Positions 22,442 through 61,611 are shown, counted from the stretch's first letter. The stretch: DNA of 61,630 nt from Neophaeotheca triangularis (GCA_054600435.1 BAAIJX010000061.1:62001-123630), one strand, 5' to 3'. The notes: generated by a model not told the origin, from the sequence alone. Translations and numbers: made by a program.

Positions 22442-23865
22442 ATGAAGTACTCCGCCCTCGCCGCCACTTTCGCCACGGCCGTTGCCGCCCAGCGTCGTGG
22501 GAACTACATCCAACCCCCGATTCAGACCAATGTCTCCGTCTTCGATCCCCCAGACAACTACACTCTCCCCCGTGTCCTCTACGGACGTGTGAGGGCTCTG
22601 GAGTGCACTGAGAAGGATGTCCTCCTCGCCACTTGGGAGAACTACCTCCCTACCGAGACTCCCCTTGAGAGGTGCCCCGACAACTGCCCGGAGAACCCCT
22701 ACCTCCCCATCTACCAATCTTACGACCAGGGTCAGACTTGGTCTGAGAGGTCTCGTGTCTACGACACTGAGAACGGCTGGGGTCTTCGCTACCAGCCTGA
22801 GTTGTTCGAGTTGACTGAGAAGATTGGTGACTTTGACATTGGAACTCTGGTTGTTGCCGCCAACTCTCTCCCCTCCGACATCAACGGTACCAAGATTGAC
22901 ATTTACACTTCTTGCGACGAGGGTTATACCTGGGAGTTCGCCTCGAGCGTTGCCACTGGTGGATACGGTCTTCCCGAGAACCAGGTGAGATTTGCTGAAC
23001 GTACTGCTAAACTTCGTTGAGCTTCCTACTAATTATATAATAGTACGACCCCGTCTGGGAACCCTTCATCGCCACCTACGAGGGCAAGCTCATCGTCTAC
23101 TACGCCGACCAGCGTGAAGACCGTGCCGACATCCCCGAGGGCGTCATCAGCGATGAGCGCACTCTCGGCCAGAAGCTCGTCCACCAAGTCACCGAGGACC
23201 TCCTCAACTGGGGCCCCGTCGTCGACGATGTCCGCTACGAAGACCCCCGCCAGCGTCCCGGTATGCCCATCATCACTGAGCTCCCCAACGGCAAGTGGTT
23301 CTTCTCTTTCGAGTGGTTGAACGTCGAGGCCGGCACCGGTTTCGAATACTACTACCGCCTTGCCGACTCTCCCCTCTCCGTCGCCGACGCCGAGGACGTT
23401 CCTCTCCTCCCCTACAACACCGACACCCAGCCCACCGGTACTCCCTACATGGTCTGGACCCCCGCCGGTGGCCCCGACGGCACCATCCTCTGCAGTGACA
23501 ACAACAGCACCTCCGTCTTCATCAACCGTGAGCTCGGCAACCCCGACGCTTGGGAGGAGGTCGAGACCCCGGCCGGTACCGCCTACTCGCGCTCCATGAC
23601 CGTCCTCCCCAACGACCCCTCCCGCATCATGATCATGTCCCCCGGCGACAACAACTCCGAGGGCCTGAACGAGGTCCTCGTCACCACCATTGACGTCGAC
23701 GACGAGGAGCGCCCCTACCCCGTCCCCTACACCGGCCACCAGAGGACCACTGGCCAGTGCGCCGCCAAGCGCCGCAACGGTGCCGGCAAGGGCAAATTCC
23801 CCGGCTCTGGCAAGGGCAAGGGCAAGGGCAAGGACGGCGAGTGTGTGCCTTGCTGCGAGGCTTAG
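22442..23865 (+). CDS. Secreted GH93 exo-alpha-L-1,5-arabinanase-like BNR/Asp-box beta-propeller; intron 22985-23043
   Basis: Signal peptide MKYSALAATFATAVAA; LYGR, LLATWENY, Asp-boxes SYDQGQTW and SCDEGYTW, NGWGLRYQP, PVWEPFI, RPGMP, AYSRS. Confidence 0.88.
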
Positions 23866-25059
23866 ATGAGAACTTTACGTCTTCCTGAGAGATGAATGTA
23901 TATTGTTAATTGCTGTAGCGTAAGCCCAATAATCAAAGACAGCTGCTGTTGCGGTTGGTCGTCGCTACTAAAAGCCATTTTCGCTACTTCCCCAACTGTG
24001 ATTATGCCCCTTCGCTAAACACTGATAAAGCCAATGGTGCCGAGCTCGAAGCATGGCGACGTCGTGAAGCACAGGACGGACTGTAGACATGGAATCGAAG
24101 CCAGGAGTCTAAGAGAGTCGGTCAGGAGTCTGCTTGGCACCGGGAGCATCGAACGATGAACAAACAAGCCGCTAGAGTTCTCGCAAAGCTTTGAAACTAG
24201 CGCATTAAGAGTTTAGGGGCCTCTCGCAATGACTCCTACTACGGCACGCCGTCTTTCTGTTGAGAGGCATCGAGCCCTGGTACCGCCTCAGCCTGCCACG
24301 TCGGCCGACCCAGCTATATCAATAAGTCTGGATCGCTGGGATGTGTTGCCGTGGAGTCGTCGGTGCCGATCGTGCAGGAGAGAGCTACATAGCTTGGACC
24401 GGCAACGGTGTCGTCGTGAATTTTGGCTTAAAAGGACATTCGACCGGTACTTGCAACAGTGTCGACCCCATCGGGACTGCGCTCAGACCCTCAACCGCCG
24501 GCGGAAGCAGCAGGACATCCATGCATCGATTCGATATCTAGAAGTGGAAGAGCCTATTGACGAGACTAGCTGCCAAAGTCTGCCGACGTGTCCACTACAG
24601 TCTGCCGCCATTGCTTGAGGTGAGTCTTCGCTCAGGGGAGAACGAGACGCGTGGAGTTTTTCCTGATCTCTCCCGCCCTCGCGCCTCTAGTCTTCTTCAC
24701 AACACCAGCAACATCTTTCCATCCACGCATCCCCTCGATCTCGACTTGCAGTTGATGGACCAAAAGCTGAGCCTCGCGGGCCCTAACCGCCGTAGCCTTC
24801 TCCTTACCAAGCAAATCCCGCAGAATTTCTTTTCTCCGCCTTCCTCTTCTCGAAAGCTGTAGGTTCGTTGGCGAAAGAAGCTGCGGAGACCTTACCTTGC
24901 ACTACCGCAGACATGGCTTCGTGACTTTTTAATCTTCTCGACCGCTTCGAAAGTATCGGTTCGGGCAACGGCTGCCTGCATGCGTTCAGCTGGGCTTAGA
25001 ATAGCGCTAGGGTAGGTCCGGGGCTTGGAATCTAGAAAGTGTCAGTTAGTAGAAGCTGA

Positions 25060-25692
25060 AAGGTCCGGTCAGAAAGGAAAGCGAACACGGCTACTAGATG
25101 CATTGGGAGATGGAGTAAATGCTTCCCCACTTACATAGGCCCAAGCGGTCTCAAAGCACCGCCTACACGACCACCTGACCACCATAGTGAGGTCGTAGCA
25201 GCGACGCTTCGCCTTCCCAGATCGCAATACCATCCCGGAGCCCTTCAGCAAAACCTCTACACGCGACCCCCGCCACCCCTAGTGGAACGTCTCCGAGCCG
25301 CGGGGTTCGATCTCGACGCCTGTAACGCGAGAGCTCTTAAACTCGATGCATCCTGACAAAGAGACAGAGCCGCCATAGAGGAGACTGCGGTGGGAATTTG
25401 GGAGATGGAGGCGAAGAAAACAAAATTTCGGGAGACGGAGGCGAGGAATTTCGTCTTGGCCAGTTGCGAGAAGAGCAAGGTGCAGGTGGAGGGAGGAGTG
25501 CCCGAGGGGAGGAAGGCTTGGGTACTACACTGTTGGGCAAGCGGACACGGGGACGAGCAGCTCTGTGGCATTGTGAATATGGAGGATTGGTTGGAGGCGT
25601 TGGGGAACGGGTGAGAGTTGAGAATTGCGGAGGGGAAGCAGTTCAAGAAACTGTCGATTCGGACGTCGGCCGGTACTACTGTCTCCTCTTAA
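25060..25692 (+). pseudogene. Probable gene remnant, ~200 codons, with two in-frame TGA stops (25354, 25612)
   Basis: One frame reads as protein-like sequence through both stops (...ARALKLDAS*QRDRAAIEE...WLEALGNG*ELRIAEGKQFKKL...). No start codon is evident. Confidence 0.35.
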
Positions 25693-25793
25693 GCTCAGTC
25701 CCCCTCTGTTGGCTGTCACCGTCCGGCAAAAGTGAAGTTGGAGAGCTGCCTCGGGTTGGGAACATTAATGGTGCAACGAATGATAGATGAATC

Positions 25794-26115
25794 AAAAAGG
25801 CAGTTTAAAGGGACCGGAAGCCGATTCATAACCTCCCTCCCAGTCGTAGTAATTAAAACTCCGGAGAGTAGGTAATTGATACAACCTCGCCAAAAACAAA
25901 TAAACCCCAAGACTGTCGAGGGGGTCAAATTGCAAAAAGAAACTCCCAAAGGGAGAAGAAACCACTTAGCAGAACCCGCACCCGAAGGCTGGTTTGCTTT
26001 TGCAAAGTGTATAGAGCTGGGATTCGAACCGCAGTCTCACCTATAACTTGATAATCTAAGGGGAGTCAGCAAGAGGGATAAGTCTTTGGTTACCAGCCAT
26101 TAGACTATTGTAATT
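25794..26115 (-). ncRNA. Putative Pol III-transcribed structured ncRNA or tRNA-derived SINE-like element, family not recognised
   Basis: On the minus strand: A-box TAGTCTAATGG (26107-26097), consensus B-box GGTTCGAATCC (26030-26020), several hairpins including a UUCG-capped one, and T5 tracts at 25938-25934, 25896-25892 and 25798-25794. There is no convincing ORF and no cloverleaf acceptor stem. Confidence 0.6.
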
Positions 26116-26611
26116 AATTCAAGTTTGTAAATTTCCCATTCCCACAATGGGGTTGGCAACGGGGTAAATATATAGTCTGGAGACTTTTGTCAAGGGGCAT
26201 CACCTGTGACTTGGTGATCTTTAGACTGCAGCTCTTTCACACCCACTATTGAGCGTGACGCGGGCCTCCTTAAGATCCTAGTCGGCCTGTGCTAGTCTTG
26301 ACTCCGCCTTTGAGAACTATCGCAGGGCCCTGGCATTCTTGATCGTGTTTGGCTTGCCATCTCCAGTGCCCCTTGTCGTGATGGACAACCCCACTTCCCA
26401 ACCCACCGTTGCTATCCAAGATGTAAACATGAGAGTGCAAAAAGAGCTGAACGAACGATAGTGTTACCTCAATTCAGGAAGGAAACCAAAGGCCGAATGT
26501 GAAACCGGTGGGCCGAAGGAGAAGAATATATTGGAATGGAGACGTGGAAAGTGAATGATCTTGAGACCGCCTACCTAGGTACTTGCATCACGACGACTCG
26601 CCGTGAAACGA

Positions 26612-27526
26612 CTAAGAATGAGCCTCGCCACTTCTGATCCTCCTACCCTCGTGCATCATCTCAATATCCTCATCCAAAGAACTCCAAGCGCCCTCCTCCG
26701 CCGACGCTATCTCAGCTTCCGTTGCCGGTCCGCCTTCGAGACCTATCGGGCCGCGCTCGATCGCAACCCGATCTGCCAATATCAACAACTTCACCTGTTC
26801 TTCCAAGCTATCAAGTTCTGCGCTAAGAGTTTTGTTCAGGGCTTCATCCTCGTCGGTGGCTCCAGCTCTCCGTCGTCCGTCTTGCTCGCGCACCGCATCT
26901 TGCAGCAACACTTTAGCCTGCCTGGTGAACCTCAAACACTGTTGCGCGGTCTTGATTGTCTCTTTGGTGCTCTCGCGTCCGGTCCTCAGATCCAGTCTGG
27001 TTGTACGCAACATCACGGAATTGTACACCCAATTGCGTACACCCTCGTGGTCCATTTTCTGCATCTCAACCAACTCGGCGTAGAAAGGGCAATCCCCTAG
27101 ACCCAACCCGTCCTGCACGTGACTTGGTTCCCACCCAAACATGACAAAGGCGGGCTCTTGATCAAAGTATTTTTTGAAGCAAGCTCTCCCGTGGAATTCC
27201 GTTGCGAGCCTGTCACGGTTCCACGCCTCGGCGTCAAAGTCCGCTTTTGTAGGGTCTTGGTCTGCGAGCGCCCCCAGCCTGCTGTTGTGCTCGTGCACCT
27301 GCTTGACACACCGCGCCAATGCCTCTTGAACGTTTTCCGGAAGCTTTCCTCCGAACCATGCGGCAGCGTCGTAGTAACGGACCTTGCGGTTCGTTACGCC
27401 CCAAATGTATGAAGCACGAGACAAGTGGACTTGAAATTCGGTCAAAGCTGGGTCTTCGTCACCCACAGCCTCGTGCCACACGTCCAAGGAGTGCTGGAAG
27501 TTCCTCATTGCGATCCAGCGGTCCAT
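26612..27526 (-). CDS. Hypothetical protein (304 aa, helical C-terminal half); possibly frameshifted from an upstream ATG at 27629
   Basis: Long uninterrupted ORF with protein-like composition. No motif recognised. Confidence 0.5.
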   Translation of the reverse strand: MDRWIAMRNFQHSLDVWHEAVGDEDPALTEFQVHLSRASYIWGVTNRKVRYYDAAAWFGGKLPENVQEALARCVKQVHEHNSRLGALADQDPTKADFDAEAWNRDRLATEFHGRACFKKYFDQEPAFVMFGWEPSHVQDGLGLGDCPFYAELVEMQKMDHEGVRNWVYNSVMLRTTRLDLRTGRESTKETIKTAQQCLRFTRQAKVLLQDAVREQDGRRRAGATDEDEALNKTLSAELDSLEEQVKLLILADRVAIERGPIGLEGGPATEAEIASAEEGAWSSLDEDIEMMHEGRRIRSGEAHS

Positions 27527-28259
27527 AGGGCGTGAGGTCTACGGGTTTGGAAAACGAGGTGCGGTTCTGGCGACTCCTATTGGCGCGACGCCTACGCTGG
27601 GCGGAAGATTCGGGTTTCCTGTGCGTCATACTTGATGTTGTAGTTGTTGGTGTTGATGGAATAGCAATGCAAGAATGCGATGAGTGCTAGAAATCTGTTT
27701 TTGGGAAAAGGTAATGTGAAATGTATGAGTGGGATGGACGAATGCAAAATATCTAGAAGTCAGGAGTTGGCATGGGAGAGAGACTCGAATAAGTAGTAAG
27801 AGCAAAGACAAAGACTTGCCCAAAATAGCAAGAGCTTTGTCGAGCTGTTCTTTACGAGAGGTAAAGAGTCTTGCTTCCTTCTCAAAGACAGCATAGTCGA
27901 CCCTTCCACAAAGCCACAAAGACCTAGAAAGCAACTTCCTTTGATACTCATACTGGCCTGGACAATCCGCGCACAACCTTAACAGCTGGGGGGTCATGGA
28001 AGGCTTGCAAGAAGTTCCGTGATTGGTCCATAACGCTGTGTTGAGCCGTTTCAATCAATTGTATCTGGAGATAGGCAGGGGTGGGAGATGTATTCCAGGT
28101 TGTTGTGGAGAGCTTTGGAAAGAGACAATGCTGTCTATCCACGTGGATATCCTAGAAGGGGTGTGGCACAAACGGAAGCGGGACCGGAACGGTGCTTGGC
28201 AGTGCATCTTTGCACTTCATGATCACCGCATACGCCTCAGTACCCTCCTAGAGATTATC

Positions 28260-40849: not shown

Positions 40850-41313
40850 GGCTGGTGGGTTGAGGGAATAGACGGAACAAGAGCATGTGTAACTATATGG
40901 CATCGGCGAGCGAATGGCGTCATGGCGCTGCGATATGGCTGATGAGGCCGTGGTTGATATGCTAAGAATCGGCTTTTTCATTCACAAAACTCAAGAATTG
41001 AGTGTTTCAAGGCATACATTGAAAGGGTAGAGTAGTCCAATGGGCTTCCAAGGTGTCAAGCGGCCAGATGAGATCGATCAGGTAATGGCTAGCAGATTGC
41101 TGGTGCGCTGACGAGTGTAGATCCATCGCCACGACCAATAAGGCTCAAAAGTACAGTGACAAGAAACCAAGGCGCAGAGGCTACCTAATTACCAGGCACC
41201 GTCCGTCAAACGACGAAGACAAAATCCAGCATCTTAGATCCAATGCGAAAAGCTGTGACACCTCACGGCGAGCTAAAGCACCAATCTCTCACATTGCTCC
41301 TCTTCAGGCTACT

Positions 41314-43341: not shown

Positions 43342-44827
<1,486 letters not shown>

Positions 44828-59287: not shown

Positions 59288-61611
59288 ATGTCCGCAATCG
59301 CCATCGAACGCGCTCAAACGATCATCGAGCCTCCACCGCCAGGCTCCCCTTACTCGGTCCCCCTCCCAGGAAGCGAGCAAGCAGGTCGCAGCGCAGTCTA
59401 CAGACACTGGCGTCAAAAGGACAGCCTCCTCACCACCCTCGACGCCGACGTCAAGAGCGCCCACGACTTCTTCGAGCAATCCGCCAACCGTAACCCCACC
59501 CAGAAATGCTTGGGCCACCGTCCCTACGACGCGCAGACTCAGACCTGGGGTGGCTATGTCTGGGAGACGTACGGAGAGATTCAAAAGAGGAGGGCCAACT
59601 TTGGTGCCGGGTTGAAGCAGATTCATGAAGCCGTCGGGGTCAATGGCAGTCAGTACGGCGTGGGTTTGTGGTGTCAGAACCGTCCCGAGTGGCAAATCAC
59701 CGATTTGGCTTGCATGTCGCAGTCGCTGTATTCTGTCTCCATCTACGATACCCTGGGCCCGGATACGACCGAATACATCATCAACCACAGCGCGTTGACT
59801 TGTGTGGCCACTTCGCTACCGCACATTCCGACCTTGCTCAAGTTGGCGCCCAAGTGTCCCTCTCTCAAGCTCATCGTCTCCCTCGACCCGCTTAGCAACG
59901 GCACTGAATTGCCGGGGACTTCCAAAGCGGACCTCCTCAACGCCATGGCTGCAGAGGCTGGTATTCAAATCCACTACCTCCGCGACGTCGAGGCAATGGG
60001 AGAGCATTCCCCTCGTCCTTACCACGCCCCTAAGCCTTCCGACACCGTCACCATCAACTACACCTCCGGCACGACGGGCCCACCCAAAGGCGTCGTCCTC
60101 ACCCACGCCAACGCCGTAGCTGCCGCTTCCGCCTCCCTCTGCATCTGTCGCCAGTCCAAGAACGACATGGTCTGCTCCTACCTTCCACTTGCACACATCT
60201 TCCAACGCGTGACCGAAGGCTCCGCTCTCTGGGCCGGCAGCAGCATCGGCTACTTCCATGGCTCCATCCTAGAACTCGTCGACGACCTCAAACTCCTCCG
60301 CCCCACCGCCTTCACCTCCGTCCCCCGCCTCTACAATCGCTTCGGCGGCGCCATCAAAGCCTCCACGATCGAAGCCCCTGGTTTCAAAGGCTCCCTCTCC
60401 CGCCACATTGTCAACACCAAAAAGGCCAACATGGCCCTACCCCCTGGCAAAGCCTCCAACACCCACCTCCTCTACGACCGCATCTGGTCACGCAAAGTCG
60501 CCGCCGCCCTGGGTCTCGACCGCGCACAAACCATGATATCGGGCTCCGCACCCCTCGACCCCTCCCTCCAAACCTTCCTCCGCGCCACTTTCGCAAACAA
60601 CATCTACCAAGGCTACGGCCTAACGGAAACCTACGCCATTGGCACAGCCCAACTCGAAGCCGACTTCAGCACAGGCAACTGCGGCGCCGCCTCGCCAGCT
60701 TCCGAACTCTGCCTCGCCGACGTCCCAGACATGGAATACCTCTCCACCGACCGCCCACATCCCCGGGGCGAGCTCATGATCCGGGGCCCGACAGTCTTCA
60801 CGGGCTACTTCAAGAACCCCGACGAAAGCGCCAAAGTCATCACGGAAGACGGCTGGTTCCGCACCGGCGACATCTGCAGCATCGACGAAGCCGGTCGTTT
60901 CAAAATCATCGACCGCCGCAAAAACGTCCTCAAGCTCGCCCAGGGCGAGTACATCTCCCCCGAACGCATCGAAAACGTCTACCTCGGCAACCTTCCCTGG
61001 CTAGCCCAGGGCTACGTGCACGGCGACAGCAGCCGGGCAACCCTCGTAGGCATTTTCGGCATACAACCCGATCTATTCGCTTCGTTTCTGGACAAGAACG
61101 CGGGCATCAAAGTCGAAGCGACGGACCTAAAGGCTTTGGAGGCGGCGGCGCGCGATGCCAAAGTGCAGAAGTTGGCGCTTAAAGAGATGCGCAAGACGGG
61201 GCTCAAGGCAAAGTTCAATTCTTGGGAGCATGTCAAGGCCGTTAGGTTGAGGTTGGAGCCCTTTTCTATCGATAATGAGTTGTTGACGCCGACGTGAGTA
61301 TTCTCCCTTACCCCTGTTTATCCCCCTCCCCCCCCCCCACCCCTCCTCCTTTCTAGCGTCACTCTGTTTTCCGAAGACGAGATGGCGCGTCTGGCCTTGC
61401 TTCTTTTTTTTCCCCCCCTTTTTTTGGTTCTTCCGCTCCTTTCGCCGCAATGGTTTTTGGCAAAAATTGGACTTTTGACAGCTAACCTGTGAGGCGACGA
61501 TGCAGTCTCAAGCTCAAGCGCCCGCAAACGGCCAAAATGTACCGCGGCCTCATTGACGAAATGTACGCCGAGTTGGATGCTGAGGAGGCTAAGCCTAAGG
61601 CGAGGTTGTAG
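59288..61611 (+). CDS. Long-chain fatty acyl-CoA synthetase (ACSL/Faa2-like), peroxisomal PTS1 (-ARL); intron 61294-61505
   Basis: AMP-binding motif INYTSGTTGPPKG, SYLPLAHIF, QGYGLTET, GWFRTGD, IIDRRKNVLKLAQGEYISPE. The last exon reads LLTPT|LKLKR...KPKARL*. Confidence 0.93.

Follow-up and report, generated by a model that had tools for sequence, protein, structure and literature searches.

Fungal SINEs, as described in the sections of PMC5063351 drawn on here, are 140-493 bp long and are flanked by target-site duplications (TSDs) of 4-14 bp. In one of them, AfuSINE2, both the A box and the B box are degenerate and a cloverleaf is lacking; others are present in 11-160 copies. SINEs that are mobilised by RTE elements have 3' ends made of TTT, TTTTT or a T-rich, microsatellite-like stretch, not poly(A), in the part of PMC6007223 that deals with them. 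Helenus elements (TRIMp3) are non-autonomous LTR retrotransposons whose LTR contains a tRNA-like sequence and which are often met as solo LTRs, according to the account consulted in PMC10886601.

In a 61.6-kb stretch of DNA (the window, that is, the whole stretch that was analysed), which comes from a filamentous ascomycete, holds a HET-domain ORF and typical eukaryotic genes and has Ascomycota as its Atlas taxa, a preliminary description had taken positions 25787-26120 of the minus strand to be one unit, an uncharacterised and highly structured Pol III RNA of ~300 nt. It had ranked this RNA first among possible new systems in the window and had named a tRNA-derived SINE as the alternative reading. 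In this report we use contig depth, contig ends, folding, searches against known RNA families and divergence between two isolates to re-examine the locus. On balance, we read 26128-25932 on the minus strand as one copy of a SINE-like family of non-autonomous retroposons with tRNA-type boxes in a filamentous ascomycete. The object had been mis-delimited and over-read, and its motifs are real.

The element lies within ~2.6 kb of DNA that holds no convincing ORF, bounded on the left by a BNR-like gene (plus strand, end near 23865) and on the right by an orphan ORF of 304 aa (26612-27526, minus strand), and the 3' ends of both neighbours face it. ORFs that overlie the 197-nt unit gave no Pfam match. 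The orphan ORF belongs to no Pfam family, and its sole relative among 2316 candidates scored from a collection of 5.8 billion proteins was itself.

Contig depth and limits of the repeat unit

Contigs from two DNA runs with one organism label, X1 and X2, were placed on 24900-27600 and their summed depth was compared. X1 is possibly the source of the window, and X2 is a relative in which 0.40 of the sampled words were present. A third run with the same organism label, X4, gave 0 contigs on this interval and a metagenome run, X3, gave 1; neither was used as evidence. The X3 contig (26719-26939) corresponds to 221 nt of the orphan ORF, with 1 difference, and the ORF has changed little in X2 as well, where the coding piece 26842-27600 shows 12 differences over 759 nt and 2 gaps.

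The single-copy baseline in X1, flat on both flanks of the repeat, was 130.1 (left) and 125.8 (right). Depth was 267-302 over 25719-25900, and the means of the successive bins that follow were 2636.6 (25901-25991), 2791.7 (25992-26082), 733.6 (26083-26173) and 313.1 (26174-26264). At single points, X1 depth was 257.8 at 25925/25926, 3785.6 at 26009, 862.8 at 26052-26079 and 1119.7 at 26081-26086. The same two peak bins had depths of 1916.7 and 2425.5 in X2, against a baseline of ~100. Expressed as copy-equivalents, which like the limits of the core are arithmetic on the depth values (bin means 2636.6 and 2791.7), these figures come to ~30 over 25932-26051, ~7-9 over 26052-26128 and ~2 over the next 100-200 nt on each side. 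The minus-strand unit is thus divided into a high-copy, ~30-fold core (25932-26051), which contains the B-box hairpin and the downstream module to just past a T5 tract, and a 5' part with the A-like box (26052-26128), which is present in only ~7-9 copy-equivalents at 80% identity or more. A unique RNA does not agree with a ~30-fold repeat depth.

The X1 contigs that match the region number 55, at identities of 80-100%, and fall into classes of at least 99% (12 contigs), 95-99% (16), 90-95% (11) and below 90% (16); in X2, 75 contigs matched on 24900-27600. The X1 contigs of the locus itself break within the repeat, stopping at 25961 and restarting at 26008, which is the pattern that a repeat would produce in an assembly graph. 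Judging from these two break points, all 31-mers of the 106 nt between the contig breaks would be common to other copies.

The copy at this locus is 197 nt long and occupies 25932-26128 on the minus strand, from ACAAACTTGAATT... to ...GTTTCTTTTTGC. Among the loose ends listed, at least three contigs in X1 and at least four in X2 cease to match at 25932, and at least two per run, in both X1 and X2, cease to match at 26128. Summed depth is ~2-fold beyond these two positions and 7- to 30-fold between them. The loose ends listed are at 25932, 26001, 26030, 26109/26110 and 26128, and they continue into mutually unlike sequence, with a consensus agreement of 0.54-0.9 where at least two contigs were pooled and of 1 at 26109/26110, where there is a single contig each. 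Beyond 25932 the other copies have T-rich sequence, among the loose ends listed. In at least three contigs of each run, the 3' module is fused at 26001 to other sequences that resemble tRNA 3' ends, with a noisy consensus (agreement 0.6).

Both limits are abutted exactly by the direct repeat AATTT on the minus strand, with its upstream copy at 26129-26133 next to 26128 and its downstream copy at 25927-25931 next to 25932, and this pair is a candidate TSD. An exact flanking 5-mer at such a spacing occurs at 0.12% of window positions, or at 2.6% when a slack of +/-2 nt is allowed. The limits that it abuts were set independently by the contigs, for the one copy examined. An 8-bp repeat, TTAATTAC (26110-26117 and 25849-25856; direct repeat D5), was considered as the TSD of a 253-nt unit and was rejected, as depth is already ~2-fold at 25925/25926.

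The sequence at 25787-25931 is flank and lies outside the element. It has ~2-fold depth, and in X2 it shows 26 differences in 263 nt and 4 gaps (~10% diverged). The span of 25787-26120 had therefore joined most of a repeat, 25932-26128, to a piece of its flank, and does not stand as one unit.

A blastn search of the window at word size 7 gave no second copy; the best off-target match was 23 nt long, with an E value of 1.5. In JGI metagenome contigs, a 21-mer over the B box and the acceptor-like strand was found at 0 loci. A 20-mer over the 3' hairpin was found at 6 loci (L001-L006), each of which matched over only 20-33 nt by blastn, and we take these to be chance matches, not relatives. Within the window, the upstream flank at 26166-26221 (minus strand), which includes a TATA-like tract, resembles the B-box region at 26005-26058 (AGATCACCAAGTCACAGGTGA against AGATTATCAAGTTATAGGTGA; direct repeat D1). 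The two sequences differ at four positions, always by C/T, and three of these changes have the CpA/TpA context of RIP. A transition-tolerant local alignment of the two segments scored 38 against 24 +/- 4 for shuffles, a score that was reached by 1 of 200. The segment 26166-26221 may be a decayed partial second copy.

Pol III-type motifs, folding and searches against known RNAs

The A-box, the B-box, the hairpins and the T5 tracts of the preliminary description are all present on the minus strand as they had been listed. The A-box-like motif TAGTCTAATGG (26097-26107) fits the relaxed pattern TRGYNNARTGG, which we take to reflect the A-box consensus. The B box GGTTCGAATCC (26020-26030) is the sole exact match in the window. 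With up to one mismatch, the B box has 5 matches in the window against 5.19 expected, and the A-like pattern has 6 against 2.97 expected; loosely defined A and B boxes are not rare in it. The feature that departs from chance is the combination of the exact B box with an A-like box that precedes it by 66 nt on the same strand. Other A-box-like motifs in the window, for example at 41033-41043 (plus), 44331-44341 (plus) and 59808-59818 (minus), have no B box nearby.

At 26010-26045 on the minus strand, the B box is enclosed as the loop of a hairpin with imperfect pairing, TATAG-GAG-CTG-GG / CC-CAG-CTC-TATA, which looks like an acceptor/T-arm minihelix with three bulges. Further hairpins on the same strand are CTCCC-TTT-GGGAG, GACCCC..GGGGTT and AATTA..TAATT, together with a segment that contains UUCG. 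Inverted repeat I1 on the minus strand, TTGCAAAAG / CTTTTTGCAA, pairs 25930-25943 with 25992-26005 over 14 nt at 86% complementarity; it is internal to the 197-nt unit, and its bounds, 25930-26005, disagree with the depth limits. A T5 tract at 25934-25938 (minus strand) is a likely Pol III terminator, with the unit ending 2 nt beyond it, and a second T5 tract on that strand, at 25794-25798, is outside the repeat unit. The proposal that an internal T5 could give a form of ~180 nt agrees with where the repeat unit actually ends on its 3' side. A second A-box-like core, GCTAAGTGG (25962-25970, minus strand), lies downstream of the B box; it is preceded by GCGGGTT and so resembles the 5' part of another tRNA. 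From its sequence, the element may have been put together from two tRNA-like pieces.

Folding was compared with that of shuffled sequence. The minimum free energy was -91.5 kcal/mol for the 334-nt candidate and -86.8 +/- 5.5 kcal/mol for its shuffles (z -0.86), and 19 of 100 shuffles were as good. The repeat pieces fold no better than shuffles, with z values from -0.39 to -1.12: -0.65 for the 195-nt repeat copy, -0.39 for the 118-nt core, -0.60 for the 75-nt module that had been called multibranch and -1.12 for the A-box part. High structure is not borne out by these values. The B-box hairpin is present as a sequence, and only its inner GAG.CTG.GG pairs fold (-7.9 kcal/mol, z -0.36). Only in the non-repeated 3' part, 25787-25931, does the fold exceed chance, and modestly so (z -2.06, equalled by 4 of 200 shuffles). 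Directly 3' of the repeat copy, at 25831-25927 on the minus strand, there is a long hairpin with imperfect pairing, GACCCCCTCGACAGTC ... GACTGGGAGGGAGGTT.

Rfam 15 gave 0 matches at gathering thresholds over the whole 61.6-kb window. Permissive Rfam scans (of 1.3 kb and of 211 nt) gave only rows at the level of chance, with a best E value of 0.23, and models for tRNA, 5S, SRP, RNase P/MRP, snRNA and Y RNA were absent at E values of up to 10 in focused scans. The Rfam Vault model scored 15.8 bits against a gathering threshold of 34 (E 0.55 in the 211-nt search), in a truncated alignment that covers 25925-25981 only and is underlain by the GCTAAGTGG core. The earlier likening to Y and vault RNAs, which had been made for a different part of the sequence, is not upheld.

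ARAGORN found 0 tRNAs in the window. A tRNA gene, intron-bearing or permuted, was considered and rejected on manual reading, as the acceptor strands cannot pair: when the B box is set at positions 52-62, the 3' acceptor strand is CTCTATA, which has no pairing with ATTACAA, the 7 nt that precede the A-like box, so the element is not an intron-bearing tRNA. The signs of a tRNA in the head are the two boxes and the T-arm/acceptor-like hairpin only. It is to these that the label 'tRNA-derived' refers, and homology of the head to a tRNA is not demonstrable from them. Four strings of the element's sequence were absent from 8.4 million full-text papers, in a search that is blind to Repbase and to figures, and four motifs of the element gave no match in the text supplement of PMC5063351.

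Isolate divergence and the origin of the repeat

The X2 contig that covers 26008-26218, with the 5' half of the element and 90 nt upstream, differs at only 2 of 211 positions. To the left, the four non-coding pieces among those listed have 71 differences in 903 nt, and the piece 26332-26742 has 17 in 411 nt. Against the rate of 7.9%, 2 differences in 211 nt have a Poisson P of ~1e-5. As this contig crosses the 5' limit of the unit, the insertion is probably shared by the X1 and X2 isolates. The 5' half of the locus looks, from these counts, more conserved than a neutral insertion, and the low divergence could be due to selection, to gene conversion among copies or to a locally conserved block. 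Non-coding DNA on the left side of the element (24900-25900) shows a divergence of 7-10% in X2, together with indels of 93 and 45 nt, and all sequence to the right of 26008 is 1-4% diverged, which places the element at a sharp change in divergence between the isolates.

The size of the unit, its ~30 copies, the order of its boxes, the T-tract, the TSD and identities that run from above 99% to below 90% together argue for a SINE-like retroposon. The unit is short and non-coding (197 nt); its copies are dispersed, with unrelated flanks, at ~30-fold depth (3785.6 against ~128); it has Pol III boxes at the level of motifs, with the A-box part in only ~7-9 of the ~30 copy-equivalents at 80% identity or more; and one copy is flanked by a TSD, AATTT. 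What had been the alternative reading in the preliminary description has thus gained by the analysis, from the repeat depth, the spread of identities and the 5-bp direct repeat at the one copy examined. The A-like box and the exact B box would then form a type-2 internal Pol III promoter, in which TFIIIC on the B box would place TFIIIB upstream and Pol III would produce an RNA of ~190 nt that ends at the T5 tract (25934-25938) or in the T-rich tail. We infer that an autonomous element would supply reverse transcriptase and endonuclease in trans, that the RNA would be copied into new sites, and that each insertion would leave a short TSD, here AATTT. Counting against a SINE are the 3' end without poly(A) and the position of the T5 tract 2 nt inside the end of the unit, so that a transcript that stops there would be without the last bases. 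The joining of the 3' module to other tRNA-3'-end-like sequences is also unusual for one young SINE family.

A rather unlikely alternative is that the copies are dispersed Pol III genes, a multi-copy family that encodes a functional small RNA and is maintained by selection instead of spreading as a parasite, with the B-box hairpin acting both as promoter and as a mimic of the top half of a tRNA (an acceptor/T-arm minihelix), at which RNase P and RNase Z could cut to give a ~75-nt 3' module that ends in oligo-U. The low divergence of 26008-26218 in X2, which extends over the 90 nt upstream with the TATA-like tract, speaks for such a family, and if the family were real, 2 differences in 211 nt against 71 in 903 nt in nearby non-coding DNA would reflect selection; however, the same low divergence may represent the conserved block to the right of 26008 (1.6-4.1%) or gene conversion. 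The core would have all its 31-mers in common with other copies though the locus seems older than the split of X1 and X2, and similarity of ~84-88% continues past the core in X1 record 7 (26087-26247) and record 2 (25729-25832), which resembles old gene duplicates with decaying flanks. The 3' module also stands behind differing tRNA-like 3' ends, in at least three contigs per run. Against these points, the exact 5-bp flanking repeat points to insertion, the identities from at least 99% to below 90% are those of ageing repeats, no part outfolds its shuffles and no Rfam family is matched. In its full form, in which the ~30 copies are conserved Pol III genes and the minihelix is both a promoter and an RNase P/RNase Z handle that releases a ~75-nt, oligo-U-tailed RNA, we hold this reading to be quite improbable. 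Similar arrangements exist in murine gammaherpesvirus 68, which has small RNAs linked to tRNAs, and in plants, which have tRNA-snoRNA dicistrons; to our knowledge, no tRNA-mimic-linked small RNA of this type is known in filamentous fungi.

Still less to be expected is that the repeat is some other short mobile element. This could be a Helenus-like TRIM that carries a Pol III promoter, was inserted by an integrase and is present as a solo LTR or a fragment, or else a MITE formed by the 76-nt module with 14-nt inverted ends. A 5-bp TSD is typical of fungal LTR elements and of fungal Helenus, going by the relevant part of PMC10886601, and among the loose ends listed the other copies, read on the plus strand, are A-rich and polypurine-like just before 25932 and carry the complement of a tRNA 3' end just after 26001. 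This plus-strand LTR-PBS reading was rejected, as the 'LTR' would be only ~70 nt long, the ends of the unit are AC...GC instead of TG...CA, and no LTR pair is present, the 61.6-kb window holding no second LTR copy. Among fungi, moreover, the reports of Helenus given by PMC10886601 are confined to basidiomycetes (Pucciniales and Agaricomycetes), with none in ascomycetes. For a MITE there is the inverted repeat 25930-25943 / 25992-26005 (14 nt, 86% complementary), but the 30-fold depth reaches 26051, beyond the end of the module at 26005, and the ends of the 197-nt unit have no terminal inverted repeat, as none of 9 inverted pairs joins 25932-25945 with 26115-26128. The TSD flanks 26128 and 25932, which is to say neither an LTR pair nor the 76-nt module. 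The original proposal of a single-copy, highly structured Pol III RNA gene of ~300 nt at 25787-26120 is scarcely credible in spite of the correct order of its motifs, the lack of a known family and the T5 tract at 25794-25798: its 5' 60% is a ~30-copy repeat that ends at 25932, its 3' part is flank with the depth and the X2 divergence given above, the T5 tract at 25934-25938 would halt Pol III before that 3' part, and its fold is no exception among shuffles (z -0.86).

If the SINE-like reading is true, the result is a routine gain in annotation, namely a family of short repeats, not filed before, that bear Pol III boxes in a filamentous ascomycete; it helps repeat masking and the avoidance of false calls of 'novel ncRNA' and adds possible TFIIIC-binding sites scattered near genes. 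At less than 400 bp, the element could escape RIP. The conservation of the locus between the two isolates is the only feature that could raise its significance.

Comparison with known elements

Vault and Y RNAs share with the element a Pol III-type A-box-like sequence and a U-rich end. They differ from it in that the Vault score is below the gathering threshold and the Y RNA model has no match at the E values scanned, and we know of no Vault or Y RNAs that are 30-copy repeats with TSDs.

Helenus (TRIMp3), as characterised in the parts of PMC10886601 used here, resembles the element in being a short interspersed repeat with A and B boxes that encodes no working tRNA, and the TSD of fungal Helenus is 5 bp, as it is here. 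Unlike Helenus as portrayed in that source, the element has no LTR pair, no PBS or PPT in sense orientation and no TG...CA ends.

The Au-like and other RTE-mobilised SINEs, in the account given by PMC6007223, end in a stretch of T, as does the element (...TTTCTTTTTGC), and other copies of the element continue T-rich. Within the coverage of PMC6007223, those SINEs come from plants and animals, their RTE partner is known and their TSDs follow a characteristic pattern, and the element is likened to them by its tail only.

The fungal tRNA-related SINEs differ from the element, on the descriptions in PMC5063351 by which the two were compared, in having A-rich or (ACT)n tails where the tail here is T-rich, and in having a degenerate B box where the B box here is exact. 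The element resembles these SINEs, as presented in that source, in several respects. Like AfuSINE2 of Aspergillus fumigatus, MgSINE, Foxy and nrs1, it is short, at 197 nt compared with 140-493 bp (PMC5063351). Its copy number is low (~30, compared with 11-160), its A box is more degenerate than its B box, its head is without a cloverleaf, and it is flanked by direct repeats, which are 5 bp long here and 4-14 bp long in the fungal SINEs covered by PMC5063351.
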